Of a stretch of 64,000 bases of DNA, positions 1 through 17,195 are shown one piece after another. Numbering within the stretch: position 1 is the stretch's first letter; each line of letters opens with the position of its first letter. Below the pieces are notes generated by a model that was not told the origin of the DNA, ran no database searches, and worked only from the letters and a program-made list of their open reading frames with translations. The stretch spans positions 278,861 through 342,860 of the forward strand of contig CAVVLX010000007.1 of assembly GCA_963749195.1 (NCBI GenBank), written 5' to 3'. The DNA comes from an uncultured Thermoplasmata archaeon. GTDB lineage: Archaea; Thermoplasmatota; Thermoplasmata; Lutacidiplasmatales; UBA184. A program made the translations under genes and the position numbers.

Positions 1-70
1 TTCCCGAGGGAGAACGAAGCGTTCGGACTTTATCAACCTCATCGTTGACAAAATCGACAAACGACTCGGC

Positions 71-445
71 TCACCCTCGCCGAGCCACGGTGGTCGAGCG
101 TCGCTTCTCCCGGAGCCAGGATTTCGCCCCGACCAACGTTCCCCACGTTCGTTTCGTCGCGATCTGCCAAGGCTCTCCGTTGGGGGAGGTCACGGCTCGA
201 TTCCACGCATCGCGAGAGTGAAGGGCGGTCCGCTGATCGACTTCCACGATGGCCCGCGTAGCTTCGGCGCGGATGACGCGCACCCGGACGATCGGACCGG
301 TGAGTCCTCGAAGGAGGGTGGAGAGCGTATCTTCCCACCAACGGATCGAGGGAAGAAATCGAGACGCCCCCGCCACCTCGAGCCCGAGGTAGCGGGGACG
401 ATGGGAACGGTTACCGGACGAGGTCGATGACTTCCTCGGACTCAC
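71..445 (-). CDS. Rpp14/Pop5-like RNase P protein component
   Basis: 124 aa; RPRYLGLEV N-terminal motif, RAIVEVD and TKRTWGTL (cf. T-x-x-T-S-G-T-I of Pop5); overlaps the ftsZ 3' end. Confidence 0.6.
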   Translation of the reverse strand: MSPRKSSTSSGNRSHRPRYLGLEVAGASRFLPSIRWWEDTLSTLLRGLTGPIVRVRVIRAEATRAIVEVDQRTALHSRDAWNRAVTSPNGEPWQIATKRTWGTLVGAKSWLREKRRSTTVARRG

Positions 446-1544
446 CGGTGGCGTAGCCTCCCTTCTGTCCGAGGAGGCTCGTCGCGCGCACTCCGGTGAT
501 GATGAGGAGCACCTTGATGGTGTTCTCCATCTCCGGACTGTTCTCGACGGAGCAGCCCCAGATGATCCGGGCGCGCTTGGAGATTTTTCCGCCGACCAGC
601 GCCGCGGCCTTTTCCGCCTCGGAGACGGTCATCGTCGGTCCGCCAATGACGCGGACCAGCGCGCCGGTGGCATCCTTGAGTTCGACGTTGCCGAGCAGGG
701 GAGACGTCAGGGCCTCGGTGACCGCCTCGGTCACGCGATCGGTGGCGCTCTCGCTCTCGCCGAGTCCAATGAGCGCCACACCGCCATCCTTCATGACGGT
801 CAAGATATCGGCGTAATCGAGGTTGACCAATCCGGGCCGCGTGACAATTTCGGTGATCCCTTTGATCGCGGTCATCAAGACCGCGTCTGCGAGCTTGAAC
901 GCCGCGTCCAAGGGCATCCGGGGTACGAGCTCCAACAGCTTGTCGTTCTGGATCACGATCGTCGTATCGCATACGCGCCGCAGTCGCTCCAGGCCATCTC
1001 GGGCCTGCTCCATTCGAGCCGCGCCCTCGCCGGCAAAAGGGAGGGTAACAACGCCCATGGTCAGCGCACCGGCTTCCTTGGCGAGCCGAGCGACCAAGTG
1101 GGCCGACCCGGTCCCGGTTCCGCCGCCCATACCTGCGGTGATGAAACAGATGTGTCCTCCATTCAGGAACTGGCGGAGTTCCTCCTCGTTCTCGCGAGCG
1201 GCCTCTTCCCCGATCTCCGGGCGGGCCCCCGCTCCGAGGCCTTTGGTCGCTCGACGCCCGATGAGGATCTTCCGGGGGGCATGAATCGTCAAGAGATGTT
1301 TGGCGTCCGTATTGATCGCGCACATCTCGGCGCCTTGGATCCCTTCCTCGACGCATCGGTTGATCGTGTTCGATCCACCGCCGCCGCAACCGACGATGCG
1401 AATGTTGACTTTCAGAGCCTCGGCCAGCTTGATGAGCTCCGCGTCATCCGCGCTCGCATACGCCGGCGCTGCCGGCTTTTTCTCCTCGACCAGGGCCTGG
1501 TTCTCCTGGTGCTTGGCAATCGCTTCCTGAATGATGGATTTCAT
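411..1544 (-). CDS. ftsZ: Cell division GTPase FtsZ
   Basis: VGCGGGGSN, NTD, GMGGGTGTG tubulin signature, NLDYAD T7 loop. Confidence 0.97.
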   Translation of the reverse strand: MKSIIQEAIAKHQENQALVEEKKPAAPAYASADDAELIKLAEALKVNIRIVGCGGGGSNTINRCVEEGIQGAEMCAINTDAKHLLTIHAPRKILIGRRATKGLGAGARPEIGEEAARENEEELRQFLNGGHICFITAGMGGGTGTGSAHLVARLAKEAGALTMGVVTLPFAGEGAARMEQARDGLERLRRVCDTTIVIQNDKLLELVPRMPLDAAFKLADAVLMTAIKGITEIVTRPGLVNLDYADILTVMKDGGVALIGLGESESATDRVTEAVTEALTSPLLGNVELKDATGALVRVIGGPTMTVSEAEKAAALVGGKISKRARIIWGCSVENSPEMENTIKVLLIITGVRATSLLGQKGGYATGESEEVIDLVR

Positions 1545-1610
1545 CGTTTTTGCCTCGCTCTGTTTGTCAGACGAGCGTCATACGCTCTGGCGACCAACTC
1601 CGTTGAAAGC

Positions 1611-1624
1611 TACTTAAACGTTCG
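1611..1624 (-). promoter_or_regulatory. Putative ftsZ promoter (BRE/TATA)
   Basis: Minus strand reads CGAACG-TTTAAGTA about 70 nt upstream of the ftsZ start; abuts the first target duplication. Confidence 0.5.
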
Positions 1625-1633
1625 CCCTGACGG
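1625..1633. repeat. 9-bp target-site duplication, copy 1 (CCCTGACGG)
   Basis: Identical 9-mer at 1625-1633, 9332-9340 and 12315-12323, each directly abutting an element end. Confidence 0.85.
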
Positions 1634-1648
1634 GAAGGTGTCGGAGTA

Positions 1649-3004
1649 TTACCTCGAGTGTTGGGATAAAACTACAGGCGACTTGGCTGGCGGGGAATTT
1701 ACCGACAGCAGCGTCTGCACGGGGCCGGAAAGGCCCGCCGGGGCATCTGGGTATGCCCCTTCTGTTGGCATCAGGAAGTCTGGCAGGACCCCCAACTCGA
1801 GCATGGCGTGGATGAGCATTCGAATGTTGTGGGCAATCGCCTTGCAAAACAGCTCGTTTACTTGGGCATCAAAATTCCGGGAGGCAATGGTCTCGTCCAA
1901 GATTTGCTTGATCGAGCCGAAGGTAGTCTCTACTTGGGCCCGATTCCCGTAACGCTCGTCGAACTTATCCCGGTGGTAGGTGAAGAACAAGAACATTTTG
2001 TGGTAGGCCGGGCTTCCCTTGGATTCACCTGTGGAGTTCGACTTGAAGGGGATGTACGCCGTTGCTCCGAGCTCCTCTGCAATGTCGAAATTCTTCCGTG
2101 ACTTGTAGGCCCTGTCCGCGTAGACCTCTTTCAGGTTGAACCCGGCTTTGAATGCCCGCTCTAGTAGAATCGAAAACCGGGGGGAGTCCCCCGCAGTCCC
2201 TTCCGTCACATCCATTGCCAGGATCGCATGAGTCCGGACTCCCACCAGAGCGTGCACCTTGAGCCAGATGTTTTCGCGCGAAGGGGCGTACTTCTCCTTC
2301 CGGTAATAGTGAAACCGGGTCGTCCGGAACCCAGTGGAATCGACAGCGCACCGGTTCTCGATTGCCCTCAAAGGGAGGGTGGATCGCTCCAGCATGCCGA
2401 AAAGGGAGGCGTTGACTTCGGAACGGCAGAGGAGGTCTGAGGTCATTCCCCAGTGAGGAACGGAGTCAATCTGACCCTTCTCGGCGGCAGCCACTCGATT
2501 CTCGTGGGACCGCCGGCAGGAGAATCCAGAGTAGACTTTCTGAATGGCGCAGAAGAGCTGGTCCCTCAGTGGAATTGGCGGTCGTCCTGCTTTGTGGGGA
2601 TCCCGTCCCGGCTCCGCAACTCCAGCACATAACTCCCGTAGCAAGACAGGAAACAGGCGCCCCTCCTCCTTCTGAGCCTGGTTGTAGATAGGCCAGTCGA
2701 CCGGGGTCCGGCGGCCCGAGCGGGGGGAAGCGAGGTTTGGAGGATTGCGCGCGGTTTCCTGAATCCAGCTCCTAACTAGGAAGATGTGTTTGCAAGGTAC
2801 GAGTCGCTCATGGAAATCCGGGCAAGTACAAGATTCGGAGAATCCCGGAAGCCCTACACCTTCAACCTGATAGGTGACAGCGCCAGATTGAGATACCACA
2901 AGGAACTTCCCGCGCGTCGAGGTCTCCACAAAAGGGTGTCCGTTACGCAGCATTTCCTGCGCCCGGGTTTCACGACCCGTGATCGCTTCGGAATCTGGGG
3001 CCAT
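1649..3004 (-). CDS. DDE transposase (IS4/IS5 superfamily, IS903-like) with N-terminal SWIM zinc finger
   Basis: SWIM CTCPDF...CKH; DDE triad AVDSTGF / YADRAY / YGNRAQVETTFGSIK (Y-x2-R-x3-E-x6-K); likely start MAPDSE at 3004 (ORF track extends to 3199). Confidence 0.9.
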   Translation of the reverse strand: MAPDSEAITGRETRAQEMLRNGHPFVETSTRGKFLVVSQSGAVTYQVEGVGLPGFSESCTCPDFHERLVPCKHIFLVRSWIQETARNPPNLASPRSGRRTPVDWPIYNQAQKEEGRLFPVLLRELCAGVAEPGRDPHKAGRPPIPLRDQLFCAIQKVYSGFSCRRSHENRVAAAEKGQIDSVPHWGMTSDLLCRSEVNASLFGMLERSTLPLRAIENRCAVDSTGFRTTRFHYYRKEKYAPSRENIWLKVHALVGVRTHAILAMDVTEGTAGDSPRFSILLERAFKAGFNLKEVYADRAYKSRKNFDIAEELGATAYIPFKSNSTGESKGSPAYHKMFLFFTYHRDKFDERYGNRAQVETTFGSIKQILDETIASRNFDAQVNELFCKAIAHNIRMLIHAMLELGVLPDFLMPTEGAYPDAPAGLSGPVQTLLSVNSPPAKSPVVLSQHSR

Positions 3005-3122
3005 ATGTCGTCCTATATGTTGACCTATCACTTCGGAATATTTAAGGTTTGAACCTATATTTTGCCGCACATGTAGACCACAACCTTCATGTAACTCCGT
3101 CCCATGGACTGGTGAGGATTCC

Positions 3123-3305
3123 TTGTCTAAGCCAATCGAATCCAAGCTCGTAAGGGCGATCAAACGCTCTGACTCGCTCCGGACCACCGTTCCGTCCACG
3201 GTAGTCGACGTCTTAGGGATAGACGCCGGGGATTCACTTCGGTGGACTCTGGATCTTAAAGGGTCTCGAGTGATTGTTACGAAATCGTCCGAGAGGACAA
3301 GGTAG
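3123..3305 (+). CDS. AbrB/MazE/SpoVT-family DNA-binding protein
   Basis: 60 aa, SLRTTVPSTVVDVLGIDAGDSLRW swapped-hairpin pattern; divergent from the transposase. Confidence 0.8.
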   Translation: MSKPIESKLVRAIKRSDSLRTTVPSTVVDVLGIDAGDSLRWTLDLKGSRVIVTKSSERTR

Positions 3306-3326
3306 GGCCCTTGGACTAGGTTTCAA

Positions 3327-3851
3327 TCAGCTCTTTGCAAGATCCGACTGGGGCTCGGGCGACCTCCGGTGACGAAGGTCCCTCGCTACGGATTCCCCCA
3401 AGGCAGTTAGGCGGTAGATTTTCAATCGACGCGGTTGGCCTTGGACGTGCCGACGGTCGACCTCCACCACCTTAGCCGCCTCTAGTCGAGACAGGACCTT
3501 GGCGAGAGTTCCCTGCCGGATTCCAAGCTTTTCACCCATTCCATTCTGGGTGTATCCAAGACGAGCTACCTCGTCGTTGCTCAGTCGACCGAGCGATGCG
3601 ATGTGGGTGATTACCCTACCAGCCGTATCCGCATACTTAGAGATGTTGTTCCGGGCCACCGAGGGGGATGCGACGGCTTTCAAGCCGTCAAGATCACTCG
3701 TATCGGGGGGACTTGGAGATTCGCCCTCCGTGGGAGGCTCGCTGGTTTTAGGACTCGATTCACGCTGAAGACGACCTCGAATGAACGCATGGGCCGCCCA
3801 GCCGGTGAACGCACCCCCCACGCCAGCGATGGCCGCATCGAGCCAGTTCAA
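3327..3851 (-). CDS. Membrane-tethered MarR-like winged-HTH protein
   Basis: N-terminal hydrophobic helix (LNWLDAAIAGVGGAFTGW); C-terminal TQNGMGEKLGIRQGTLAKVLSRLE...IYRLTALG wHTH; TTG start at 3851 preferred. Confidence 0.7.
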   Translation of the reverse strand: MNWLDAAIAGVGGAFTGWAAHAFIRGRLQRESSPKTSEPPTEGESPSPPDTSDLDGLKAVASPSVARNNISKYADTAGRVITHIASLGRLSNDEVARLGYTQNGMGEKLGIRQGTLAKVLSRLEAAKVVEVDRRHVQGQPRRLKIYRLTALGESVARDLRHRRSPEPQSDLAKS

Positions 3852-3950
3852 ATCGTCCTCTAGGTCTGTAGCGGGCGGGAAGCAGGTAGTATGCGGCCGC
3901 ACCTCCAGGCTGGAACAATCAGATTGTGGCGCGAGTCCTCAAGCTCCACG

Positions 3951-6146
3951 TCAGCGGCTCCTATCCATGATTGACGGCTCTTTCTCGTCGGTCAACTCTT
4001 CGATCCATTTTTCCCCTTCTCGACGTTGGGAACGCTTGTAGAACGAGCTCGCTCCCCAGGCGCCCGCCACGATCATAGCGATTCCCCCGGCGACGACGAA
4101 CTCGATATACCAGCTCGACCCCATCCCGCTCGCCGCCGAATACTCTCCGACTTGAATTGCTAACGTACTCATGGAGCGGTTTCCCCGGCCGTCAGTGACC
4201 GTCAGCACTACCGCGAAGTGCCCGGATAAGGCGTAAGTGTGGCTCGGGTTCTGTTCCGTAGAAATTGAACCATCACCAAAGTTCCAGCTATACGCGTACG
4301 GCGGGATTCCTCCCTCCGCTTGACCCACGAAACTTACCATGAGCGAAGACGTTCCGCTGCCCACGCTCGATCCTGCGATTGCTTGCAGCATGATCGAAAT
4401 GTTGAGCTCTGCGTGGATGGCATCTCCCGCCGCGTCGGCCACCGTCACTTCGGAGATAAACGGCCCATTCGTAGAGTAGATGTGAGTAATGCTCGAAAGG
4501 TTACCCCCCACTCCTCCATCCCCGAAAGTCCACGAATATGTATACGGTGGGTTCCCGCCGATTACGTTGGCGGAGAAATTAACTGGGCTATCGAGGATCG
4601 CGGGATTAGGCGTGGCGTCGATTGAGGTGATCGTAAGCGGGATGAAGACGTGAACTCGGAGTGAAACGTGCGCAAGATGTCCCGCACTGTCGTTTAGCCA
4701 CAATTGGACGAGATAGAATCCCACGGTCGAATACACGTGCGTTGGGCTCATGGAAGTGGATTCGCCGCCGTCACCGAACAGCCAGTCGTAGTTGAGCGGA
4801 GCCACTCCCCCTTTGAAAGAGACGGTAAAATTGGTTGGAGAGAGAGGCTCCGGAGCTGGCGGGGCGTTGGCAATGCTTACCCCAGCCAGCGGTGGAGCGA
4901 CGCTCCAGATCCACGTATCATTGATTATTCCGAAGCCTGTCCGCTGAAAAATTCCCCCGAACAAGAGCACGCCAGAATCGAAGGAGTCATTTGCGAAACC
5001 GGCCGCGTATACCCCCACTGGTGACTGGGTGGGAGTCTTGTTGGTCCAGGCTCCGCCAACAAACGACCAGGTATCATTCAATTCAGTAATCGGCGTCCCG
5101 TTGCCCCCAAATCGAGGGGATCCACCGAACAGAATCACGTCACCCGATGTGTCGTCGTATGCTACTTGAGCCCCATACCTCGGGGAAGGCGAGGTGATTA
5201 AGGTTGCAGTAATGTTAGACCACTTCCCGGCTGAGAACACCCAGGTGTCTCCCAATATTCGTGCCGAACCGTCGACGAAGCCGCCGAACAATAGTATGTA
5301 CCCATCATGGGCGTCATAAGTCAGCGCGAACTGTTCTCTGAGACTCGGTTCCGGGGATAATGTCGAATTGTTTCCACTCGTTACAGGTGTCCACACCCCC
5401 CCATGGTAAGTATAGGTGAGCTCCGCTTGTCCTAAATCGGAGTTGAACATACCAAGCAGCAGGACGTAGGCATCCGCGGAGTCGTAGGCCATTCCGACCC
5501 ATTCCGGGTAGCTCGGCGCGCCCGTGACCGCAAGTTGGTGCCACCGCCCTCCGACGAATGCCCAAGTATCGTTCGTGGGGGTGATCGAGTTCACTCCTCC
5601 GAACGCGAGGATGTAATGATCAGAAGCGTCGTACGTCATGTCCATTCCATCCCGAGCAGACGGCGACGTACCGGCGGTAGAGGTGATGTTTGACCAGGTT
5701 CCACCGGCAAAAGTCCAAGTGCTGTTCAAGGCACGGGCGGAGTCCCCGAGACCCCCGAACAAGACCACGTAATGGTCGACTGGGTCGTAACACATGGACG
5801 CATATTCTACATCGGGAGGACTTGGAGACGAGGTAAGATTCGTCCAGAACGGCTGAGCGGGGGCAGCTTGGCCTGCTGGAGTGGAAGCGCTTCTGCAGTC
5901 TAAGCCAATCCGATCTGACCCGGTGCACGTCATCGGATTGCCTCGCGCCGGCCCGCCTCCCGTAGCCAACGAAGCGTCGGCCTCTCTGATAAGAGAGGTA
6001 GACAGGGGAGGTCCGGAAGAGTGCGCGATTCCAAGCCACTGTATGGGCTGAGGCGCAGAAGGTACCGCGAGCAGTAAGATTGGAAGTACGACAACCATCA
6101 CGGTAAGAAATATATCTTGGGTATCGCGGGACCGCGCCATTTCCAA
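3951..6146 (-). CDS. Surface protein with Kelch-like beta-propeller, 3 PKD domains and C-terminal TM anchor
   Basis: Signal-like N terminus; repeated YD...LFGG...DTW blades; three W-x-FGDG...HxYS PKD motifs; TM helix near the C terminus. Confidence 0.85.
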   Translation of the reverse strand: MEMARSRDTQDIFLTVMVVVLPILLLAVPSAPQPIQWLGIAHSSGPPLSTSLIREADASLATGGGPARGNPMTCTGSDRIGLDCRSASTPAGQAAPAQPFWTNLTSSPSPPDVEYASMCYDPVDHYVVLFGGLGDSARALNSTWTFAGGTWSNITSTAGTSPSARDGMDMTYDASDHYILAFGGVNSITPTNDTWAFVGGRWHQLAVTGAPSYPEWVGMAYDSADAYVLLLGMFNSDLGQAELTYTYHGGVWTPVTSGNNSTLSPEPSLREQFALTYDAHDGYILLFGGFVDGSARILGDTWVFSAGKWSNITATLITSPSPRYGAQVAYDDTSGDVILFGGSPRFGGNGTPITELNDTWSFVGGAWTNKTPTQSPVGVYAAGFANDSFDSGVLLFGGIFQRTGFGIINDTWIWSVAPPLAGVSIANAPPAPEPLSPTNFTVSFKGGVAPLNYDWLFGDGGESTSMSPTHVYSTVGFYLVQLWLNDSAGHLAHVSLRVHVFIPLTITSIDATPNPAILDSPVNFSANVIGGNPPYTYSWTFGDGGVGGNLSSITHIYSTNGPFISEVTVADAAGDAIHAELNISIMLQAIAGSSVGSGTSSLMVSFVGQAEGGIPPYAYSWNFGDGSISTEQNPSHTYALSGHFAVVLTVTDGRGNRSMSTLAIQVGEYSAASGMGSSWYIEFVVAGGIAMIVAGAWGASSFYKRSQRREGEKWIEELTDEKEPSIMDRSR

Positions 6147-6425
6147 TTCCCAATGGTCTATTGCATGCTTCCGGCTTAAGAACCGTTTGTGGATTTACGA
6201 CATAGATATTCCGAGTCAGGAATATTGCTAACCTTTCCCCCATGTCAGGATTCTGTTCGCGAACTCGCATTTGCTGTCTTGGGCGGAGGGTCGTCGATTA
6301 TCCCGTGAAAATTGTTGCAAATCTCGCAAAAAAGTAAGCCATTAGAGAAGTGAAGCTCCGGTCACTACTATCCATCTCAACTGAAATTAACGGGATTTGT
6401 GTCAAAAAGGCGTTCGTAAGGCAGC

Positions 6426-7807
6426 TCAAAGAGCTTGTTTTGTAATCGTCGGAGCGACCGTGTATGTAATCGTGATCGTGTCTCCGACCCGAAGGACAAG
6501 ACACCCTGAAGTCAGCCCAACTACTGTCCCGTTCCGTTCGATTTTTGAAACCGTTCCCCCGGAAACGAGGACGGCTTCATTGAACCCGTCGCCGTTGGGG
6601 TACGCGACGTTACTTCCGGGAGCGGGTACCGCCACGCCCGGGTCATTTGGACCCCGACCGGCCAACGTACCGGAAAAGACTCCAGGCTGACTGTCGTCCG
6701 TGAACCTAAGATATCCAAACTGGGTCCCAGAGCTAGCAAAAGATATCCCTGCAAATACAAATTGGCAGCGACGAAACTCTATGTTATAGACAAATCCCGG
6801 GTCCGATGTTCCAAAGGTGTCGTCGATGAACCCCCCGCTAGCCCCCCCACCGGGTTACCTGAAGTGGCGCCGGAATCAAAAATGCAGTCCTCCACATGTA
6901 CGTCGTGTAGACTTCGAGACTGTGTGGGATTTATTCCGCTTGCGTTGCCCTGAAACTCTAGAACTGACCCGCTAACCCCATTATTCTTGAACCGGCTACG
7001 CCGGACAACGATCTGGGAGCAGTCCCCCGCGTTAGCGTGGAGAAAGCAATTAGAGCAATCGACTGACGAAGAAAGTGCTGACGCATTAAGATCCACGTCC
7101 TCAATCGCAATCTGACGGGCGGAGCCCTGCACAACCAATCCAGATGCGCTAGTCGCCGAGGCGGACCAATTCGCCGAAATTCGCGATACCAAGACGTTGC
7201 GAATTTGTTGGAGATACGTAACCCCAGATTGATAATTGTTTACACCGATGTAGAACGCAGTATTGCTTACACCGTTGATGACGAAATCGTCGACCACTAT
7301 GTCTTGGGAAGGCGCGGGTGCCGAGACCGAATCGTGGAGGCCCCAATTTGAGATGTGAATTGTATTCGTCGGGGCAGTGCTGGATAAACCGTTCTGCTGA
7401 ATCACGCAGCCGTTGCCGTACCATCGGCAGCGGGAGAAGTTCTGCATGTTAGCCGCGGTTCCCCCACCTCCGATGTGAATGACGAACGCGTATGCGCTGC
7501 TAGATGGATCGATTAAGAGGACGGCTCCTACCCCGAAGGTGATTGTGCAACCAGGTTCGAACATGACCGTCTGATCGTTACCGGTTTGGACGATGGAGCT
7601 GGTGAACACATACGTTCCCCGCCGAGCATAAACAAAACCTCCTGTTGTGGCGATGCCGTTCAATGCTTCTTGGATGCCTGAAGTGGACGTGCCCGGTGTG
7701 TCGGGGCCATAGTCATCCCCGTCGTTTGGGACCGTAGATTGCCCATTGGCCAATCCCTTAGGAGAGACTGTTACGAAGGGTGTTCCGGCGGTGCTAAACC
7801 ATGCCAT
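6426..7807 (-). CDS. Beta-helix (pectin lyase/tailspike-like) protein, one frameshift at the C7 run 6842-6848
   Basis: GPDTPGTSTSGIQEALN...GGFVYARRGTY cap followed by Asn/Ile-rich coils; adding one G joins ORF 6779-7807 in frame to FIDDTFG...TITYTVAPTITKQAL ending at 6426 (about 460 aa). Confidence 0.65.
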
Positions 7808-8004
7808 CTAGGGACTCCCGAGACTTTGTGACTGAGCCGAATTTGATTTCTAAGCCGTCAAGGAATTTGCAGGGCCGAACAGACTCGTCCGCCCTTGGGG
7901 TCCAGATGGACCCCCACGAATGTCTCCCGTTAGTCGCACCGAGGATACCTGCATAGACGTCGCCGGCCCCGGTCGCACCGGAGGTCAATTCAGCCGTCAT
8001 CTCT

Positions 8005-8220
8005 TCACTCCTCGAAAATGTGATCGAGGACGCGTTTGGCATTTAATCCGACGAGAATCCCAGCGCCGAGGGCCACCGCCGCGCCGGCGGCCGCATTCCA
8101 GTCGCTCTCAGCGACGTGCGTAGTCACGTACCCACCACAGGGGCGGCACCATCTTTCGGATCCTGGTACCCCTAGACCCAACGCGGCTCCGCAGGCAGCG
8201 CATTCGAGTTCATCGCTCAT
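8005..8220 (-). CDS. Small Zn-ribbon protein with C-terminal hydrophobic helix
   Basis: CAAC...CRPC followed by AAAGAAVALGAGILVGL; start MSDELEC. Confidence 0.5.
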   Translation of the reverse strand: MSDELECAACGAALGLGVPGSERWCRPCGGYVTTHVAESDWNAAAGAAVALGAGILVGLNAKRVLDHIFEE

Positions 8221-8531
8221 GGATTGAACTTTATTCAGATGTTGTTCGTGCCATGCGCGAGGACCACAATCGACACCCACCAAGAAGTGCGAGGAGCAAG
8301 ATCTCAACCACCTGCACGCCCGCGCGTTCCGTCGAAGTTGCCCATCGACCCGCGGTTACCAGCATGGTCTCCTTTATCGTCCCTAAAAGGACTTTCAGGA
8401 CCAACAGTACAAAAGCATCCTATAACCTAGTTGTCGTCGACAACGCGACAAGTATGGGCGGGTACATACGACCTGGGTGATCCGTTCGTTACCACAGTAA
8501 CCATTTAATCGACACCCGGACATCGAGCTTT

Positions 8532-8708
8532 ATGGACGCGCAGGAGCCCGTGACTGCAACCGTAACCCGCGGAGGAAAGATCCACCTTCCGGCCGAGGTC
8601 ATGCGAAATCTCGACGTGAAAGTAGGGCAGCAAGTCGTGTTCTTCCTGAAGCCCGGAAAGGCACTCGTTCAGCCAATGTCAGCTGTGTTGTCGAAACCGG
8701 TCTGGTAG
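8532..8708 (+). CDS. AbrB/MazE/SpoVT-family DNA-binding protein (58 aa, below the ORF-track cutoff)
   Basis: Hand translation MDAQEPVTATVTRGGKIHLPAEVMRNLDVKVGQQVVFFLKPGKALVQPMSAVLSKPVW; TTTAAT box about 25 nt upstream. Confidence 0.8.
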   Translation: MDAQEPVTATVTRGGKIHLPAEVMRNLDVKVGQQVVFFLKPGKALVQPMSAVLSKPVW

Positions 8709-9331
8709 AGAAGCACGTCGGAGCTCGAGCTCCAGTCGACAAACTTTTTCCTTGCATATCAGACAGTTTTTGCGACAGTAGTGGTGCGTTGGACTACGGA
8801 ATGAGGGACTCCACGGACGGTCGGAGGTAACTGATTATTTGCGGGGTCGGAGGACCCTGTAGGTGATCTACAGATGTCCCGGTCCGGTCGATTCGGTTAC
8901 AGGTGAAATGACTCGGTTGCAGGTGTGGGATTTCGTCACAACTTCCAACGACGCTATCCCGCGGTGTAGCCTCCGCCGTCAGGGTAGTCTCTGACCCCAC
9001 GTAGATTATCACGGTGATCGAATGCCCCCTCGTCGGGGCATTTCTCACATCGAACGAAGGTGGGGTGATACCAGCAGCGCCAATTCCTGATTCCCATTTT
9101 CCGCGTGTGGACTATTAGGTACTCTTGGTCGGGCAAATCTGCTTTCATGCCTACAGAGGCCCTAATCATGGTCGAACCTAAGAGTCTTCGTTGGACAATC
9201 TCCCTCTCCAGCAAACTTAGCCCAGCCGCGGGGTGGGTCGTCGAAATCCCTCCCCATATGTACCAATAAAACTACTACCCGCCGTGCACTTTACCAATAA
9301 AACTACACGGAGGATATTTACCGACAACTTC

Positions 9332-9340
9332 CCCTGACGG
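9332..9340. repeat. 9-bp target-site duplication, copy 2 (junction of elements 1 and 2)
   Basis: ATTTACCGACAACTTC-CCCTGACGG-GAAGGTGTCGCTAAAT. Confidence 0.85.
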
Positions 9341-9437
9341 GAAGGTGTCGCTAAATCACCTCGAAGAAGCCGATAAAACGACAGCGAAAACGGCCCAGAT
9401 CGATTAAACGACTGCCAGGAGAATTAACGGCACCTTC
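9341..9437 (+). repeat. 97-bp end module (MITE-like, own inverted ends), left copy
   Basis: Begins GAAGGTGTCGCTAAAT, ends AATTAACGGCACCTTC; 83/97 identical to 12218-12314 by hand alignment. Confidence 0.9.
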
Positions 9438-9699
9438 ATCATGGAAGGAGCCACCATGTACTGGGGTTTCTCGTTGAAGAAGCATGAGGAAGTCTACAAG
9501 ATCCCGAGAGAAGGACTTCGGGTGACCTTCCCCAAGTTAATGGAGGGGTCGGGTCTCAGGGATTCGTTGAAGTGGACGTTGGGAGAGGGTTGAACGTTGA
9601 CTCTTTGAACAATATGCCCTCGCAGCGAGACCTGTCACTAACTCAGCCCCGCAGTCCTCAGGTCCATCGATTTTGAATGAAGAGAGGCTGGCTGCGATT

Positions 9700-10290
9700 C
9701 TATAGAAACTGGGTGGGAGCGTTTTCGTAAACCGAAATAGTCGCATTGAACGTGATGGGAGGACCGGGAGTTGGAGACGGAATCCAAGCCGCCCTCAAGA
9801 TTAGTGAATATTGACCCAATGGCACGACCTGCGACAGTGAACCTATTGTAACCTCCAAGATGTCATGCGAAGATCCCCAAATCCCAACCGCGGTCGCCCG
9901 GATCGATGTGACTATCACCGACCCGTTTGGAGAACTCCAGTTCAGCTGAATGGAGCATTCAACAAAGCTTCCAGGAGTGTGTTCGTTGCAGTTAAGGTCG
10001 AAGACCACTACAATGGTGACCGGGATTTCTCCGCTCGAGCTTTCACCTACGGTTGCGTTGTCGAGAGCGATTGGAACCATGGTACTCTGGTTCACGTTAG
10101 TCACGAGTTCTTCCTGAAGTAGACCGCCCGTTGCTGTCGACGGTTGAATGCGTGGAACCGTCAATGAAACGACAATCAAGACTATTGCAACAGCTACGGT
10201 CAAAGTGATTAGGAAAACCCACTTCAGGCGGCGATCGCCGCGTGGGCGACCATTTTCCTGAGGCCCGGGACCGCCCCTAGCTGAACTCAT
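9700..10290 (-). CDS. Membrane-anchored hypothetical protein (cargo)
   Basis: Basic N terminus, one TM helix, beta-rich ectodomain; co-oriented 10 nt after the peptidase gene. Confidence 0.65.
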   Translation of the reverse strand: MSSARGGPGPQENGRPRGDRRLKWVFLITLTVAVAIVLIVVSLTVPRIQPSTATGGLLQEELVTNVNQSTMVPIALDNATVGESSSGEIPVTIVVVFDLNCNEHTPGSFVECSIQLNWSSPNGSVIVTSIRATAVGIWGSSHDILEVTIGSLSQVVPLGQYSLILRAAWIPSPTPGPPITFNATISVYENAPTQFL

Positions 10291-10300
10291 CCTTCCTTCA

Positions 10301-11953
10301 TCACGGCGCAGGGTAAGTACGTATGGTGAACTCGTACGTCTTGGTCAGGATGAGAGGCGGGACGTACCAGTCCAGCAAGTTGAATCCTTCTCCAAGCCAT
10401 GATTCGAGAATGCGTAGGCTCAGATTATCGTACACGGTCCCGTTGTCGGCAAAATAGAGGTTGAACCACGTTATGTTCCCGACGTTTGGAGAAGGGTTCG
10501 ACGCGGATTGAGTCGGGTTCTCCGCGATCCACTCGGCGGAATTCACGTTGGGGGCAGAAACTCCGGATTGCCCTTTCTTGTCTGGCATGAATGGAATAGG
10601 ACCAGGTCCCCCATTGTTGGAGGTCCCCCAGACTTCCTTTCCGTTGAATGAAATCGAGAAATAGCCCAGCTCTCCTTTTCCGCCTGAAGTCGAGTTACTG
10701 GTGACAAGCATGTAGATAGTGATGTTGTTGTGATACCCGGAGTAAGTTGGAAAAAAGTTATAGAGGAATTCAGATCCCGGATTATCATACGGGTAGTAGC
10801 AAGCCGCAATGCAACTGCCAATCCCATGGGGGTCGTAGATTTCATAAAACAGGTTCGCGCATGTACCCCCCTGTCCATTGTTGCAGTTTGAGCTATAGTC
10901 GAACTCGATGCCAGCTTGCCACAGACTCTCGTTGCCGATGAACCCGCCTATTCCAATCCAATACACGATTGGCTCGTCTGTTCCGCTTCCGGTCTGAAGA
11001 ATTGCCCCTGGCATGGTAAACGACCCTTGAGCGGATGTGACGTCAGAACCCACGTATGAAAGCCCGCCCCAGGTCTGCGTGGTTGTATTTGTTCCGTTCT
11101 GGGTTTCCAAGTAAAGTACCCCATTTGACGCCATCAAATTGATGGTGTTTTGGGATACCGAGGTAGGCGACAGGAATTTCACGTTGAGCCCCTGCCACTG
11201 CCAAAAAGCGTAAAATGACTCCGTGTAATTTACCGGTTTTATCCCATATGGATCGCCTAGACACAAGCCAATCGAAGCGCCTGAGGACACGGTCCTACTT
11301 CCCCTTCCGAAGAACGCCGTACTTGTGAAGACGACTTGGCCCACGCTTTGCGGGACCTCGGCTTTTAGGGGGGCAGTACAGGATGAAGCGGGGCCGTTTA
11401 GTTGTAGCGCTCCAGAGCTTCGGCCAGATCCGGCAGTTACCCAGTACGGACTCGGATTGATGACTGCCCCTTGCGAACACGTCGGATGCGTGCCGAGGCA
11501 TGAGTCTCCCGAAGCAGTGAAGTTGATGAAACTGTAATTTGTATCCATAGCCGCCTTAAGCGTGAAGGTACAGAGCGATTGATCGCAGATATCAATCGCG
11601 TTGGTGGCCGAGGTATTGGCACATTCTTTCACCCCGCTCAGCCAAAGGGTTCCATGCGCACAGCTGAAAGTAATGTAATCGCCTGGAAGAATCGGCGGTA
11701 CAGAGGCTACCGGGCTTGTGGCCGCTGCCAGCGGTTCGCTTGATAAAGTCATGGCGAGGAGGGCAATGAGTAGTAGGGCTATGGATGGCCATCGGGTTCT
11801 ATGCGCGTGGGCAGGGGCATAGTCGCGAGGACAAGAATCGCGGTCAAATTTACGCTCTGGCCGCTCGTTTTCGATTGCTTCTAGCGATGAACCCTCCGGC
11901 GCCTCCTCACGTCGCGAGGCATCCCGATCTGGCGACGCACCCGGGATCATCAC
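10301..11953 (-). CDS. Secreted multidomain protein with C-terminal G1 (A4, eqolisin-type) glutamic peptidase domain
   Basis: TWGG, VTSAQGSFTMP, YWIGIGG, LWQAGI (catalytic Gln), SAEWIAENP (catalytic Glu); signal-like helix and Cys-rich N-terminal region; start uncertain. Confidence 0.7.
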   Translation of the reverse strand: MMIPGASPDRDASRREEAPEGSSLEAIENERPERKFDRDSCPRDYAPAHAHRTRWPSIALLLIALLAMTLSSEPLAAATSPVASVPPILPGDYITFSCAHGTLWLSGVKECANTSATNAIDICDQSLCTFTLKAAMDTNYSFINFTASGDSCLGTHPTCSQGAVINPSPYWVTAGSGRSSGALQLNGPASSCTAPLKAEVPQSVGQVVFTSTAFFGRGSRTVSSGASIGLCLGDPYGIKPVNYTESFYAFWQWQGLNVKFLSPTSVSQNTINLMASNGVLYLETQNGTNTTTQTWGGLSYVGSDVTSAQGSFTMPGAILQTGSGTDEPIVYWIGIGGFIGNESLWQAGIEFDYSSNCNNGQGGTCANLFYEIYDPHGIGSCIAACYYPYDNPGSEFLYNFFPTYSGYHNNITIYMLVTSNSTSGGKGELGYFSISFNGKEVWGTSNNGGPGPIPFMPDKKGQSGVSAPNVNSAEWIAENPTQSASNPSPNVGNITWFNLYFADNGTVYDNLSLRILESWLGEGFNLLDWYVPPLILTKTYEFTIRTYPAP

Positions 11954-12217
11954 CAGACCCGCAAACGCGGGCCTAGTGATTGTGACTAGATCGGTGGGCC
12001 GAGGTCATAATGGTTGTGAAGTAAGCTCGATTTTCGTCTGAAAGCGGGAATCTTAGCGACCAAGGCTGGACGTCGAAATTCCGTCGGGCGATGATTCGCG
12101 AAAGTCACTTCCCCCTAAGGTTGGAGTTTCAGCTCAGGAGGAGTGGTTTCTGTGCGCCGCACGGTTTTCAGGCAACGCCGGGTGCGGAATTTGGTTGTAG
12201 CACAACCTAGTCGACGC

Positions 12218-12314
12218 GAAGGTGTCGCTAAATCACCTCGAAGAAGCCGAGAAAACGACAGAGAAAACGATCCAAATCGATTAAACGACATACGGTAGAT
12301 TTAGCGACACCCTC
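12218..12314 (+). repeat. 97-bp end module, right copy
   Basis: Begins GAAGGTGTCGCTAAATC, ends GATTTAGCGACACCCTC; direct repeat of 9341-9437. Confidence 0.9.
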
Positions 12315-12323
12315 CCCTGACGG
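12315..12323. repeat. 9-bp target-site duplication, copy 3
   Basis: CCCTGACGG directly after the right end of element 2; host-like GC content resumes. Confidence 0.85.
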
Positions 12324-12523
12324 GAACCGTCCCCTAGTCGCGGGATGAATCATCTCGCGTTTCAGGTGTCCCATTTCGCGGGAGAGCCTCCGTCGCGAAG
12401 GCGATCAGTTTCCTCCAGCGGATTCGATTCCGATGGGAATTTGGTCCCCGTCCCCTCGCGTCATACCGATGGTCCGATGCTCGCATGAGAAGTAGTTGTG
12501 AACTCGGAACCTTTCCGAACGGC

Positions 12524-12721
12524 TCAAACGGCTCCTTGCGAACCGTTCTGAATTCGGGTATCGTGAAGGTTGAACACCGACCATCGATGACAAATGGGGC
12601 ACGCCATGTACCGGCTTCTTCCCAACCGAAACGCCGTGAACGACGCGCCGGGTACGTACTCGAAAACAAACTCCTTCCCGCACTTCGGACACTTAAGGGC
12701 CGACTTCCAAACCAGCCCCAT
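12524..12721 (-). CDS. Small Zn-ribbon protein (65 aa)
   Basis: MGLVWKSALKCPKC...CPIC; GAGGGGGAG SD-like sequence upstream. Confidence 0.7.
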   Translation of the reverse strand: MGLVWKSALKCPKCGKEFVFEYVPGASFTAFRLGRSRYMACPICHRWSVFNLHDTRIQNGSQGAV

Positions 12722-13241: not shown

Positions 13242-13697
13242 TCAGGAGGTTGACGGGGTTGGAGGCGAGGACCATCCCATTCGGCCGCCCATCATTGCCA
13301 TCGCCGCGAGCAGAAGCTGGGCCCAGAACGCGACCAGAAATGCGATTCCCATGATGACCGTGTCGACCGGGGGATTCGGCGTGGAACTCACGAAGGCCAT
13401 TCCGGCAAACCCGGCGGTCAGAATAGCGGCGAGCATGACTACCGAAAGACCGATGAACCGGATCTGCCGCGTGAACGCGGCGACGATGAGGACGATGATG
13501 GCGACCACGCCCAAAACATCTCCATTCACGTAGTGAAGATTGATTGCCGGAAACGCTGTGTTGTTGGTGAATCCGTTCGCGGGAGCGTAGGCGTTGGTGT
13601 AGAGACCCGCGATGTATTGGATCACCAGAAGGATGCCCGCGATCGGGATCAAGACCCTCAGCGCCCGATAAGGCCACGTCGATTTCGTTGGGGGCAT
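13242..13697 (-). CDS. Four-TM membrane protein
   Basis: Four hydrophobic segments; start MPPTKS. Confidence 0.7.
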   Translation of the reverse strand: MPPTKSTWPYRALRVLIPIAGILLVIQYIAGLYTNAYAPANGFTNNTAFPAINLHYVNGDVLGVVAIIVLIVAAFTRQIRFIGLSVVMLAAILTAGFAGMAFVSSTPNPPVDTVIMGIAFLVAFWAQLLLAAMAMMGGRMGWSSPPTPSTS

Positions 13698-13847
13698 CGC
13701 GCGGGTCGACATTCTACAGGGATATTAACTCCGGCTGGCAGTGGGGTCGCGTCCAGCAGCGGTCCCGGAGGGGTGGACCCGATGCTCACGTTGTCCAAAC
13801 GCACGCAACGGCCGAGAGTTTATCCGACCCGAGGCTCGTGGGTACCC

Positions 13848-16800
13848 GTGGATTCGTATTTTCGATCGATTGAGCACTCGGTGGATCTCGCCTACCAGGT
13901 TGCCCAACGAGCTCGGGATGAAGGACTGGATCCCGAACGATTCCCGGAGATTCCGCGCGCCGAAGATATGGCGATGCGCGTGGAGAAGTTACTCGGCCAT
14001 CTCCCCCTCGCGGGAATCTCAGGAGAGATTCGCGAACTGGCCCAACAGATGCCCCGGGAAGAGGTGGCGTTTACGATTGTCCGACGGGTCCTGCGAGATC
14101 CCGCTCGAGGCGACACGCTGGAGTCCCGAGTCGACACCGCGCTACGGCTCGGTCTCGCGATCCTCACCGAAGGGATCCTGGTCGCTCCCCTCGAAGGGCT
14201 GGCCGAAGTCCACGTTCGGGGGGGTCGAGGCGGGGAATCGTACATCGAACTGTATTACGCCGGCCCGATTCGAGCGGCCGGTGGCACGGCCCAAGCCTTG
14301 TCGGTGCTGTTGGCGGATGTCGTGCGACGCGATCTCGGACTCGGCGTTTACCACCCGGAGCCCGCGGAGGTCGAGCGCTACAAGGAGGAAATTCCCCTCT
14401 ACAAGCAGCGCCAACACTTGCAGTACGTTCCGAGCGCCGAAGAGATCGAACTGGTCGTCCGAAACGTTCCGGTCTGTATCTCGGGAGAGGCCACCGAAGG
14501 CGATGCCGAGGTCTCTGCCTTCCGCAATCTCTCCCGAGTTCCGACGAATGGGCTCCGTGGTGGTGCCTGTTTGGTGATTGCCGAAGGACTTTGTCAAAAG
14601 GCGCCAAAGCTACGAAAGGTCGTGGAGAAGCTCAACCTCCCCGGATGGGAGTTCCTTCAACAGCTGGGACTCCACCAGAGTGGGGACGGGGAAGACGCGG
14701 GGATTCCGAAGTACCTCACGGACGCGCTCGGAGGACGCCCCATCCTGGCCCACCCGAACCATCCGGGCGGTTTTCGTCTCCACTATGGTCGAGCTCGGAC
14801 CACCGGCCTCGCCGCGTGTGCAGTCAACCCGGCGACGATGGTCGTGCTCCGCAAATTCGTGGCGATCGGCACGCAGCTGAAGTTGGAATACCCCGGAAAG
14901 GCCGCGGCGATCGGCGTGTGCGACACGATCGAAGGCCCGATCGTCGAACTGCACGACGGAACGGTCACGGCCGTTCACGACAGCGAACGTGCGTCCGAAC
15001 TCCTGCCCCTGATCTCTCGCATTCTCGACCTAGGCGAGCTGTTGATCTCGTTCGGGGAATTTCTCGAGAACAATCGCGTCCTCGTCCCTGGTGCGTACTC
15101 GTTCGACTGGCATGCCCAAGAGCTCCGCGCGGCCGGCGTCCCCGAGACTAACGAAACCCTCGTCCCTTCCTACGAGGGCGCGGTCGCGATTGCCCGTCAG
15201 TACAACGTGCCCCTCCACCCTCGCTTCCTCTTGTTTTGGCACGACCTGAGCTCAACAGAGATTCGCGCGCTCAGCGAGTTCGTCGAAGCGAACGGACGAT
15301 GGGAGGATGGCGCGCTCCAGCTCCCGATTGACCCTGAGCAACGGCAATTGTTGTTGCGGCTCGGTTTCTTGAGTTCGCCGCTCCCCGATGATCGCGTGCG
15401 GGGCGAACCCGAGTCGAGTGCGGCCCTGGTCGGCGGTCTGGGATTAGCCGTCGCTGGGATGACGGTGATCCGCCAGTCTCCTCTCGATCCGGTAGAGCTA
15501 GAGCCCCTCGATTACGTGAGCCGCCTAGTCGGGGCGCGAGTTCATGCTCGGGCGCCGTCCCGCGTCGGAGGTCGAGTGGGCCGTCCCGAAAAGGCACGTC
15601 AACGCTCGATGACTCCCAACGTGCACGCGCTCTTTCCGCTCGGAGAGTCCGGCGGCGCGAAACGCTCGGTCTCGGAATCGGTTCGCCGAACGATGGCAAG
15701 CGGGGTGGCGGTGTCGCTAGGTCGTCGCCGATGCCCGGAATGTGGAAAGAGTACCGTCTGGCTCAAATGCACTTGCGGCACCCATACCGAACCGACCGGA
15801 GAAATCGTCGTCGAAGCGCTGCCCGTCGCTCCGATATGGTCGGATGCCCTTCGTCGGTTGCATCTCAACAGGACGCCCGAGGTGAAAGGCGTCAAGGGCC
15901 TCACCTCCCCCGGTAAAGTTCCCGAGATGATCGAGAAGGGAATACTTCGGGCGGCGCACGGGATCTCCGTCTACCAGGATGGCACCGCCCGATTCGATCT
16001 CACCGATCTGCCACTCACCCACTTTCGGCCGCGCGAGATCGGGCTGGGGGTGGAGGAGGCGAAGCTCCTCGGCTACGATCGGGATTGGTCGGGCGCCCCG
16101 CTCACCGACCCGGATCAACTGGTCGAACTTGCTCCCCAGGACATCGTCGTATCTCGAACGTGCGGCGAGTACCTTGCCAGCCTGGCTCGTTTTGTCGACG
16201 ACGAGCTGATGCGCATCTACAACCTCGACCCGTTCTATCGGATCCAGCGACCCGAGGATTTGCGGGGGGCCATCGTCGTCGCGCTGGCACCGCATACTTC
16301 GGGCGGGGTCGCGGGCCGCATTCTCGGGTTTACGGAAGCCGAGGCGTGCTTCGCGCATCCCGTGTTCCACGCCGCGAAGCGACGGAATTGCGACGGAGAT
16401 GAGGATTCCGTCACCTTGCTCCTCGATGCGCTCCTGAATTTCTCCCGATCTTATCTTCCGGCCAGCCGAGGCGCGTTGATGGACAAACCCCTCGTCCTCA
16501 CGACCCGGCTCCATTCCACGGAGGTCGACAAGGAGGCGCACAATCTCGATATCATGACCCACTACCCGCTCGAGCTGTATCGGGCGGCGCTCGCGGGCCA
16601 GAACGCGAAGGAGATCGAGAAGTGGATCGAAACGATCGGCCATCGGGTGGGATCCTCCCGCCCGCTTTCCGGCTTCGGATTCACGCACGACACCACGGAC
16701 GTCGCCGGGGGGCCCGTGCGTTCGGCATATCGCGAAGCCGAGTCGATGAACGGGATCGTCGCCCAATCGCTGGCCTTGACGTCCCAGATTCGGGCGGTCG

Positions 16801-17195
16801 ACGTCGCCGAAGCGGTGACACTGATGCTCAATTCGCATTTCCTTCCCGATCTGATGGGCAATCTCAAGAGCTACGCCACGCAGTCGTTCCGTTGCAAGAG
16901 TTGCGGTGCCTCGGTCCGCCGTCCCTCCCTCAACGGACGATGTACGCAGACGCTCCGCGGCGGAGCCCGCTGTGAAGGCGAACTACTGCCAACCGTGTAC
17001 GAACGGATGGTGCGCAAATATCTCGGGCTCTCCCGGCAGCTGGCGGAGACCGTCGGAGTGACGCCTTACGTCCGTCAGCGGATCGACATTCTAGCGGCGT
17101 CGCTCGCGACCCTCTTCCCGGGGACAATTGCCCAAACGACCCTCGAGGGATTCGCCCCGAAATCAATGGACCCAGAACACCTCGAGCCGGCGTGA
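13848..17195 (+). CDS. polC: DNA polymerase D large subunit DP2
   Basis: AILTEG..VAPLEG, YAGPIRAAGGTAQALSV, Zn fingers, HAAKRRNCDGDEDS active site; GTG start about 25 nt after a TTTATC box. Confidence 0.96.
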   Translation: MDSYFRSIEHSVDLAYQVAQRARDEGLDPERFPEIPRAEDMAMRVEKLLGHLPLAGISGEIRELAQQMPREEVAFTIVRRVLRDPARGDTLESRVDTALRLGLAILTEGILVAPLEGLAEVHVRGGRGGESYIELYYAGPIRAAGGTAQALSVLLADVVRRDLGLGVYHPEPAEVERYKEEIPLYKQRQHLQYVPSAEEIELVVRNVPVCISGEATEGDAEVSAFRNLSRVPTNGLRGGACLVIAEGLCQKAPKLRKVVEKLNLPGWEFLQQLGLHQSGDGEDAGIPKYLTDALGGRPILAHPNHPGGFRLHYGRARTTGLAACAVNPATMVVLRKFVAIGTQLKLEYPGKAAAIGVCDTIEGPIVELHDGTVTAVHDSERASELLPLISRILDLGELLISFGEFLENNRVLVPGAYSFDWHAQELRAAGVPETNETLVPSYEGAVAIARQYNVPLHPRFLLFWHDLSSTEIRALSEFVEANGRWEDGALQLPIDPEQRQLLLRLGFLSSPLPDDRVRGEPESSAALVGGLGLAVAGMTVIRQSPLDPVELEPLDYVSRLVGARVHARAPSRVGGRVGRPEKARQRSMTPNVHALFPLGESGGAKRSVSESVRRTMASGVAVSLGRRRCPECGKSTVWLKCTCGTHTEPTGEIVVEALPVAPIWSDALRRLHLNRTPEVKGVKGLTSPGKVPEMIEKGILRAAHGISVYQDGTARFDLTDLPLTHFRPREIGLGVEEAKLLGYDRDWSGAPLTDPDQLVELAPQDIVVSRTCGEYLASLARFVDDELMRIYNLDPFYRIQRPEDLRGAIVVALAPHTSGGVAGRILGFTEAEACFAHPVFHAAKRRNCDGDEDSVTLLLDALLNFSRSYLPASRGALMDKPLVLTTRLHSTEVDKEAHNLDIMTHYPLELYRAALAGQNAKEIEKWIETIGHRVGSSRPLSGFGFTHDTTDVAGGPVRSAYREAESMNGIVAQSLALTSQIRAVDVAEAVTLMLNSHFLPDLMGNLKSYATQSFRCKSCGASVRRPSLNGRCTQTLRGGARCEGELLPTVYERMVRKYLGLSRQLAETVGVTPYVRQRIDILAASLATLFPGTIAQTTLEGFAPKSMDPEHLEPA

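Follow-up and report, generated by a model that had tools for sequence, protein, structure and literature searches.

We analysed a stretch of 64,000 nt (the window, to which all positions refer) from an uncultured Thermoplasmata archaeon (GTDB lineage Lutacidiplasmatales; UBA184), taken from contig CAVVLX010000007.1 of assembly GCA_963749195.1 (positions 278,861 to 342,860 of the forward strand). Upstream of ftsZ, the window carries two adjoining elements: the transposase-carrying E1 (1634–9331, 7.7 kb) and the smaller E2 (9341–12314, about 3 kb). E2 is probably a non-autonomous member, with MITEs (miniature inverted-repeat transposable elements) at its ends, of an archaeal IS5-like transposon family with 9-bp target duplications, and E1 and E2 probably entered one preferred target upstream of ftsZ in succession. 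An IS5-like, MITE-ended composite is of a known kind; the site-specific stacking beside ftsZ is the new part.

End modules and layout of the island

E2 is bounded by two modules of 97 nt in direct orientation, mod1 (9341–9437, plus strand) and mod2 (12218–12314, plus strand), which are identical at 83 of 97 positions (85.6%). None of the 14 differences falls within the leading 33 nt, and eight lie within the last 25 nt. Both modules start with GAAGGTGTCGCTAAATC, and an inverted copy of this 17-nt terminus stands at the far end of each. The inverted copy matches the start at 14 of 17 positions in mod1, where the inner terminus has decayed, and at 16 of 17 in mod2, where both termini are good; the outer termini of the whole element also match at 16 of 17. 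A search of the 2.36-Mb genome using nhmmer and a model of the two copies returned mod1 and mod2 with E-values of 1e-29 and 4e-29, the next best match having an E-value of 0.7. The likeness of the two modules is not due to chance. A first-pass annotation made from the window alone had described these direct repeats with their inverted termini, and the description is confirmed.

The 9-mer CCCTGACGG lies to the left of mod1 and to the right of mod2, and the inner flanks are ATCATGGAA (right of mod1) and AGTCGACGC (left of mod2). As the annotation had stated, these flanks place a duplication around the outer pair only, and neither module alone has the duplication of its own that is expected of a MITE. 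In size and structure the modules resemble MITEs (97 nt and thus below 500 bp, non-coding, bounded by terminal inverted repeats, TIRs), and also in origin, being homologous to the end of an insertion sequence (IS) in the congeneric genome G062 and in the metagenome contig L070. They are not multicopy and dispersed: the genome holds three copies, all inside the island. E2 does have the layout of a MITE-bounded composite transposon, two end elements bracketing cargo within a single outer duplication. Judged by sequence homology, mod1 and mod2 are best described as miniature TIR-bounded derivatives of an IS end.

The island as a whole consists of 9-mer, E1, 9-mer, E2 and 9-mer. The three copies of CCCTGACGG, all on the plus strand, are the left target duplication (1625–1633), a copy common to E1 and E2 (9332–9340), and the right target duplication (12315–12323). 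The genome contains the 12-mer CCCTGACGGGAA at three places and no others (1625, 9332 and 12315), each of them an element junction. E1 begins at 1634, right after the first 9-mer, with the left-type terminus GAAGGTGTCGGAGTATTACCTCGAG, which overlaps the 3' end of a 516-aa open reading frame (ORF). This transposase-proximal end (1634–1712, plus strand) resembles a module: its terminal repeat is GAAGGTGTCGG, and it has motifs at 1666 and at 1697. E1 is closed by a degenerate end module, mod0 (9235–9331, plus strand), which ends in TATTTACCGACAACTTC directly before the middle 9-mer. GC content is 0.50–0.59 from ~1600 to ~12,800, compared to 0.62–0.69 outside.

In the congeneric genome G149 the site is empty. 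The sequence corresponding to window positions 8–1636 (84.7% identical) abuts that corresponding to 12315–12474 (82%), and the overlap of the two flanks is one CCCTGACGG, with GAACTGTCCCC after it. Since this empty site holds one 9-mer, the whole of 1634–12314 (10,681 bp) is an insertion and the 9-mer its target duplication. The annotation had taken E2 for a MITE composite that moved together with its cargo. Modules derived from an IS end and a segment absent from G149 agree with that description; its extent has to be corrected, as E2 is the distal third of a larger, 10.7-kb insertion.

The transposon family and its insertion site

The 516-aa ORF (1649–3199, minus strand) encodes an IS5-like DDE transposase. 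It matches Pfam DDE_Tnp_1 (PF01609) at an E-value of 5.8e-22, with 78.9 bits against a cut-off of 23. Its best NCBIfam match is the IS5 family (NF033579; 116.4 bits, below the cut-off of 140), with the IS1182, IS4 and ISH3 models scoring far lower, and a SWIM zinc finger is weakly matched (0.0022, below cut-off). The protein is ~25% identical to genes annotated as IS5 or IS903B and is the only copy in its genome. Members of the IS903 group produce a 9-bp target duplication. TIRs with a duplication of fixed length, as in IS5-type elements, were found here too: the TIRs match at 16/17 in E2 and 17/17 in the congeneric G011, and perfect 9-bp repeats are present in the genome itself (G000), G011, G015 and G062. 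Of the 150 genus genomes, 68 (G000 included) have homologues of the transposase, the best of them 55% identical; this tally and that of the ftsZ-upstream matches below include three genomes flagged as unpublished (G019, G159 and G160), on which none of the individual claims depends.

Module-like ends in direct orientation are the normal ends of this family and not a peculiarity of E2. The 11-nt motif ATWWARCGACA, a putative transposase-binding site, has seven matches genome-wide, five of which are within mod1 and mod2, once inverted at the left edge of the module and again forward, including at the right edge. The ends of E1 hold their own variant pair of the motif, ATAAAACTACA and ATTTACCGACA, at 1666/1697 and 9297/9316. 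In G062, the family is represented by a compact IS of 1,740 bp with termini GAAGGTGTCGTACAATC and GATTTGACGACACCTTC, and ~75 nt at its transposase-distal end align to the first ~75 nt of the modules. The same distal end was found in L070 (95.5% identity over 44 nt to mod2, 85% over 74 nt to mod1). Relative to this IS end, the modules carry an additional second, inverted terminus. A sequence-only model of the module (R1) matched the left end of E1 (1636–1707, E = 0.0025), and it also recovered the G062 counterpart of mod0, which lay outside its training set. Relatives likewise have direct look-alike ends because both ends carry the same, presumably transposase-binding, motif array.

On the scheme we propose, a family end would be a module of ~80–100 bp whose left edge has one inverted motif, with two or three forward motifs following, the last at the right edge. 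Such a module would have inverted termini itself and look like a MITE. With the module in one orientation at both ends of an element, the ends would resemble direct repeats, and of each module only the 17 nt at the very outside would serve as a TIR of the element.

Related elements were found in several genomes of the genus. The IS of G062, together with cargo and a distal module, forms a 6.55-kb unit with GGGGCGCGG on both sides, which adjoins the gene of the proline transfer RNA (tRNA), tRNA-Pro(CGG), ending 50 nt upstream of it (positions 7567–7691 of locus L132, G062:C12). The unit is syntenic with E1: the transposase is 62–72% identical at the amino acid level, a helix-turn-helix protein 70% and a Kelch/PKD protein 55%, and a beta-helix protein is shared too. 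Given this synteny and the unit's own 9-bp duplication, E1 is a complete transposon without E2. At the ftsZ site of G015 lies a cargo-bearing element of 8,663 bp with no transposase match (GC content 0.549, compared to 0.607 in its flanks), which is bracketed by two copies of CGTCGAGAG and closed by a full-length module. G011 carries a different member (54% amino acid identity) in the opposite orientation, at the same CCCTGACGG, which is present on both sides of the element; its 17-nt TIRs are perfect, and it is split over two contigs. As an end piece of cargo-bearing elements, the module recurs in G062, G015, G004 and G089. The annotation had left a choice between two MITEs that captured a segment and a dedicated cassette end. 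This recurrence brings the module closer to a cassette end; a free, abundant MITE it is not.

To the right of the G011 element (locus L055, G011:C20, minus strand, ~9916–8468), CCCTGACGG recurs three times, each time followed by G[A/C]ACTGT. The repeats CCCTGACGGG[A/C]ACTGT bound a segment of ~880 bp with a membrane-protein ORF and one of ~500 bp with a glyoxalase-like ORF, the latter with short inverted CTGTAAC ends. Both segments have the look of earlier insertions that stacked at this target and have since decayed.

The region upstream of ftsZ was matched in 144 of the 150 genus genomes, and we surveyed the site in the 30 best-scoring of these 144 loci, with at most 1.5 kb per locus (L102–L131). 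The 8-mer GAA[GC][GT]TGT, a family-type end, occurred at an identical offset from ftsZ in 11 of the 30, 11 nt after a conserved AAACRTK; within the same distance of at most 1.5 kb, three loci had a transposase match. The target 9-mer varies among species (e.g., CGTAGAGCG and CGTCTAACG) and its position is fixed, 15 bp upstream of a TATA-like box before ftsZ. In G062, likewise, 15 nt separate the element end beside tRNA-Pro from a TATA-like box, preceded by ACG (by eye). Both boxes are presumed to be promoter elements. Further members occupy this position upstream of ftsZ: the transposase-proximal end points toward ftsZ in G087, G156, G068 and L070, and the other end does so in G004 and G089. 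Three independent insertions into one 9-mer in the group of G000, G011 and G149, out of ~2 million positions, cannot be chance. Neither this family nor homing to a site near ftsZ in archaea came up in our searches of the literature, supplements excepted.

We rejected a single ancient insertion inherited vertically as the sole explanation of this distribution, the site being empty in G149. Vertical inheritance is further opposed by the different members in opposite orientation at the same 9-mer in G011 and G000, and by the opposite ends that G004 and L070 have against the same flank.

After the 9-mer (12324–12345 in the window), the sequence starts with GAA or GGAA in 27 of the 30 genomes. In the seemingly unoccupied G149, G099, G147 and G155 it begins GAACTGT, similar to the terminus of an element. 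Possibly, the native right flank is itself the relic of an end.

Origin of the tandem and competing explanations

The sequence of events that we favour would be as follows. E2 lost its transposase, or never had one, and would have depended on an enzyme acting in trans. This would be the 516-aa transposase next to it or an enzyme of the G062 type, which would better match the motif variant of E2. E1 and E2 would have inserted in turn into one and the same 9-bp target, leaving three copies of CCCTGACGG; two successive insertions into one preferred target account for the three 9-mers being identical. The mobilisation in trans and the order of the two insertions are inferred. The transposase may have been lost by internal deletion, or E2 may have arisen by capture of its cargo between two modules. 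The inner boundaries of E2 (9438–9720 and 11940–12217) showed no likeness to E1 or to any other locus compared by blastn and tblastx. Since they match nothing, the one sign that E2 derives from an element of the E1 type whose transposase was deleted is the weak likeness of a small E2 ORF to an AbrB-like ORF of E1 (described below).

Elements of the family start with GAA, as does the native right flank, so that the target copy on the promoter side would keep its context and further elements could stack. Renewal of the target in this way could be what enables stacking. A stronger proposal, which we advance tentatively and think doubtful as it stands, is that of a homing transposon of uncultured Thermoplasmata, with a transposase bearing a SWIM-like finger that cuts with a 9-bp stagger 15 bp upstream of a TATA-like box, as found at ftsZ in many species and at tRNA-Pro in G062, each insertion rebuilding the target for the next. 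If this were true, a tandem cassette array beside an essential gene would be an archaeal DDE-transposase counterpart of the integron platform or of attTn7.

Several observations weigh against the reading that we favour. E2 has the motif variant AAAACGAC, and the ends that belong to the resident transposase have another, AAAACTAC; because of this difference the neighbouring enzyme may be inactive on E2. As R1 was trained on mod0 among others, the R1 score of mod0 is circular; under the two-copy model mod0 reached an E-value of 67 only. The left end of the G015 element is weakly TIR-like (7/17 by eye) and went undetected by R1. No second copy of E2 was found in its own genome or in the genus genomes, nor did we see E2 present or absent independently or at a second site, G149 lacking the 10.7-kb block only as a whole. 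Independent movement of E2 is thus a matter of deduction. The module family is rare, with an E2-type end in two of the 150 genus genomes and profile matches in 11. A solo module with its own duplication, which the annotation had proposed looking for in the genome and its relatives, was found neither there (own genome, 150 congeneric genomes) nor in two public collections. The junction 9331/9341 was not bridged by the contig pieces listed.

A live rival holds that the whole of 1634–12314 moved as one 10.7-kb transposon with its ends at 1634 and 12314, that the junction 9331/9341 remains from a dimer or from joining targeted at an end, and that E2 never moved alone. The identical outer 9-mers and the absence of the whole block from G149 fit such a single composite, and abutted ends with a spacer of duplication length are known for IS30 from a part of PMC9333248. 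We nevertheless consider it unlikely: G062 shows an E1-type element that ends at the equivalent of mod0 and has its own 9-bp duplication, the middle 9-mer does not differ from the outer two, as two ordinary insertions into one target predict, and E1 and E2 differ in their motif variants.

Far less credible is a chance composite, in which two free MITEs independently came to flank a resident chromosomal segment. Each module does have inverted termini of its own, and excerpts of PMC10969869 and PMC6382973 describe MITE-flanked segments in bacteria. Against it stand the lack of a duplication around either module, the failure to find solo copies, and the cargo itself, which is low in GC, absent from the empty site and without a close relative in 149 congeneric genomes. 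The search for modules outside the island was made in several ways. BLAST of the own genome returned the two known copies and nothing else, and BLAST of 61 relatives gave any match in four genomes and a substantial one in G015 only. A 30-nt pattern with up to three mismatches was found twice in G000, once in G062 and in no others of the 150 genus genomes. A 20-mer scan yielded nine stretches in metagenome contigs, of which two were true (L067 and L070), and six in genome contigs, of which one was true (L074); the others had no terminal repeat. G148 has a module-like sequence of 76 nt at the ftsZ site, without a duplication. The pattern that the annotation had named as speaking for a chance composite, abundant solo modules and no other paired copies around cargo, is therefore not the one observed. 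Short Logan contigs from three soil-metagenome runs of one study contained no joints, deletions or solo-copy forms and are uninformative on absence.

In G161 (L115), the gap between ftsZ and the DNA polymerase D gene is only ~400 nt, yet a lone terminus of the family type, GAAGGTGTCGCGATTTTTCCTCGAG, stands at its start, probably a solo end that remained when an element was lost.

We give equally little credence to repeats made in the manner of long terminal repeats (LTRs) or by a recombinase, where the end module would be duplicated on capture or integration, as the annotation had also suggested. The repeats are indeed direct, and the G011 segments are bounded by repeated CCCTGACGGG[A/C]ACTGT. 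The suggestion is disfavoured by the modules differing at 14 of 97 positions while the 9-mers are identical, by the absence of a reverse transcriptase or integrase domain from the three E2 ORFs scanned, and by the homology of the modules to the ends of DDE transposons. A tandem produced by a mis-join at the 33-nt stretch identical in mod1 and mod2 is similarly improbable: the assembly is of metagenome type (10 contigs, 89.6% complete) and the listed pieces leave 9331/9341 unbridged, set against a contig of 1.0 Mb, independent short contigs (at least 99% identity) that cover all 30 bins and bridge 12314/12315 (Logan contigs from the runs X1 and X2) as well as 1633/1634 (the latter in a variant strain), and a three-9-mer pattern that a mis-join would not create.

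Related systems and gene content

The closest known relatives are elements of the IS5 family, of the IS903 type, with which the present family shares a DDE_Tnp_1 transposase (~25% identical), TIRs of ~17 nt and a 9-bp duplication. It differs from them in an N-terminal extension of ~240 aa with a SWIM-like finger, in long multi-motif ends, in kilobases of passenger genes, and in a strongly preferred target; with a score below the NCBIfam cut-off, it is not a curated member of the IS5 family. Tn7 repeatedly inserts at the fixed site attTn7, and elements of the IS1202 family reportedly insert at dif (PMC10132070). The repeated insertion at a fixed position beside a conserved feature is similar here. 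In contrast to Tn7 and IS1202, we identified no dedicated targeting protein, both orientations occur, and the 9-mer varies with a fixed offset from AAACGTT and the TATA-like box.

Among bacterial composites, parts of PMC10969869 and PMC6382973 describe class 1 integrons of Acinetobacter flanked by MITEs, along with MITE-297, and according to a section of PMC4133298, TIMEs (inverted-repeat miniature elements that derive from Tn3) mobilise intervening DNA. As far as those sections of the three sources go, E2 shares with these composites two miniature, TIR-bounded elements without a transposase, passenger DNA between them, and one outer duplication. It differs in its archaeal host, its IS5-like parent, modules that are 14% diverged rather than identical, the lack of free module copies in our searches, and module-like ends that are normal in transposase-bearing relatives. 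IS30, as a part of PMC9333248 describes it, targets either a hot-spot or a position beside its own inverted repeat, giving abutted ends with a spacer of duplication length. Similarly to those joints, mod0 and mod1 abut across the 9-bp target. The transposase here is of another family and chemistry, and ordinary duplication of the 9-mer explains the junction, end-targeting being a deduction only.

The passenger genes of this archaeal IS5-like family encode surface proteins, regulators and a peptidase-like protein. The family carries them from one species to another within a genus of uncultured soil Thermoplasmata, and its long modular ends can outlast the loss of the transposase. With one ftsZ-adjoining position entered repeatedly, in both orientations and by diverged members, the genus lends itself to testing how DDE transposases choose their targets in archaea, and the position is a candidate safe harbour for the genetic tools of the group. 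For annotation, a family that moves by cut and paste can have LTR-like direct repeats as its ordinary ends.

E2 contains three ORFs. The largest, of 550 aa (10301–11953, minus strand), matches Pfam Peptidase_A4 (9.1e-09) and has an N-terminal hydrophobic stretch (by eye). Its relatives are distant, at most 37% identical, and were found in 18 of the 150 genus genomes (counting G000) and not in G149. The second cargo ORF, of 196 aa (9700–10290, minus strand), has one hydrophobic stretch (by eye) and no match in Pfam or NCBIfam. A small ORF of 50 aa (9441–9593, plus strand), without a Pfam match, is weakly similar to the AbrB-like ORF of E1 (BLASTP E = 4e-4, 11/27 identical).

That AbrB/MazE-like ORF encodes 60 aa (3123–3305, plus strand; Pfam MazE_antitoxin, 4.6e-06) and adjoins the start of the transposase, overlapping its first ~25 codons on the opposite strand. 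The arrangement is kept in G062 and G011, and because of this conservation the true start of the transposase may be further downstream. A second AbrB/MazE-like ORF of 58 aa lies near the right end of E1 (8532–8708, plus strand; Pfam 1.8e-4, below cut-off), with no obvious toxin partner. The cargo of E1, all on the minus strand, comprises a helix-turn-helix protein of 191 aa (3327–3902; weak PadR and HTH_Crp_2 matches), a Kelch/PKD surface-type protein of 731 aa (3951–6146; Pfam PKD_4, 2.4e-38, and Kelch families), and a beta-helix-like protein of 342 aa (6779–7807; weak pectate-lyase-like Pfam match, 0.0015). The likeness of the three to the G062 element given above was seen by tblastx.

To the left of the island lies ftsZ (411–1544, minus strand; Pfam Tubulin, 1e-45, and FtsZ_C, 3.9e-23), with the target in its upstream region. 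Rfam and tRNA scans of the region gave no match and no tRNA, with two sub-threshold chance hits elsewhere. The right flank holds the gene of the DNA polymerase D large subunit (13533–17195, plus strand; Pfam PolC_DP2 N-terminal, central and catalytic domains, E at most 1e-102), separated from the island by two small ORFs. These flanking genes mark the host as an archaeon. A zinc-ribbon ORF (CPKC...CPIC; 12524–12720, minus strand) that belongs to no Pfam family is 70–79% identical at the nucleotide level in many of the genus genomes.

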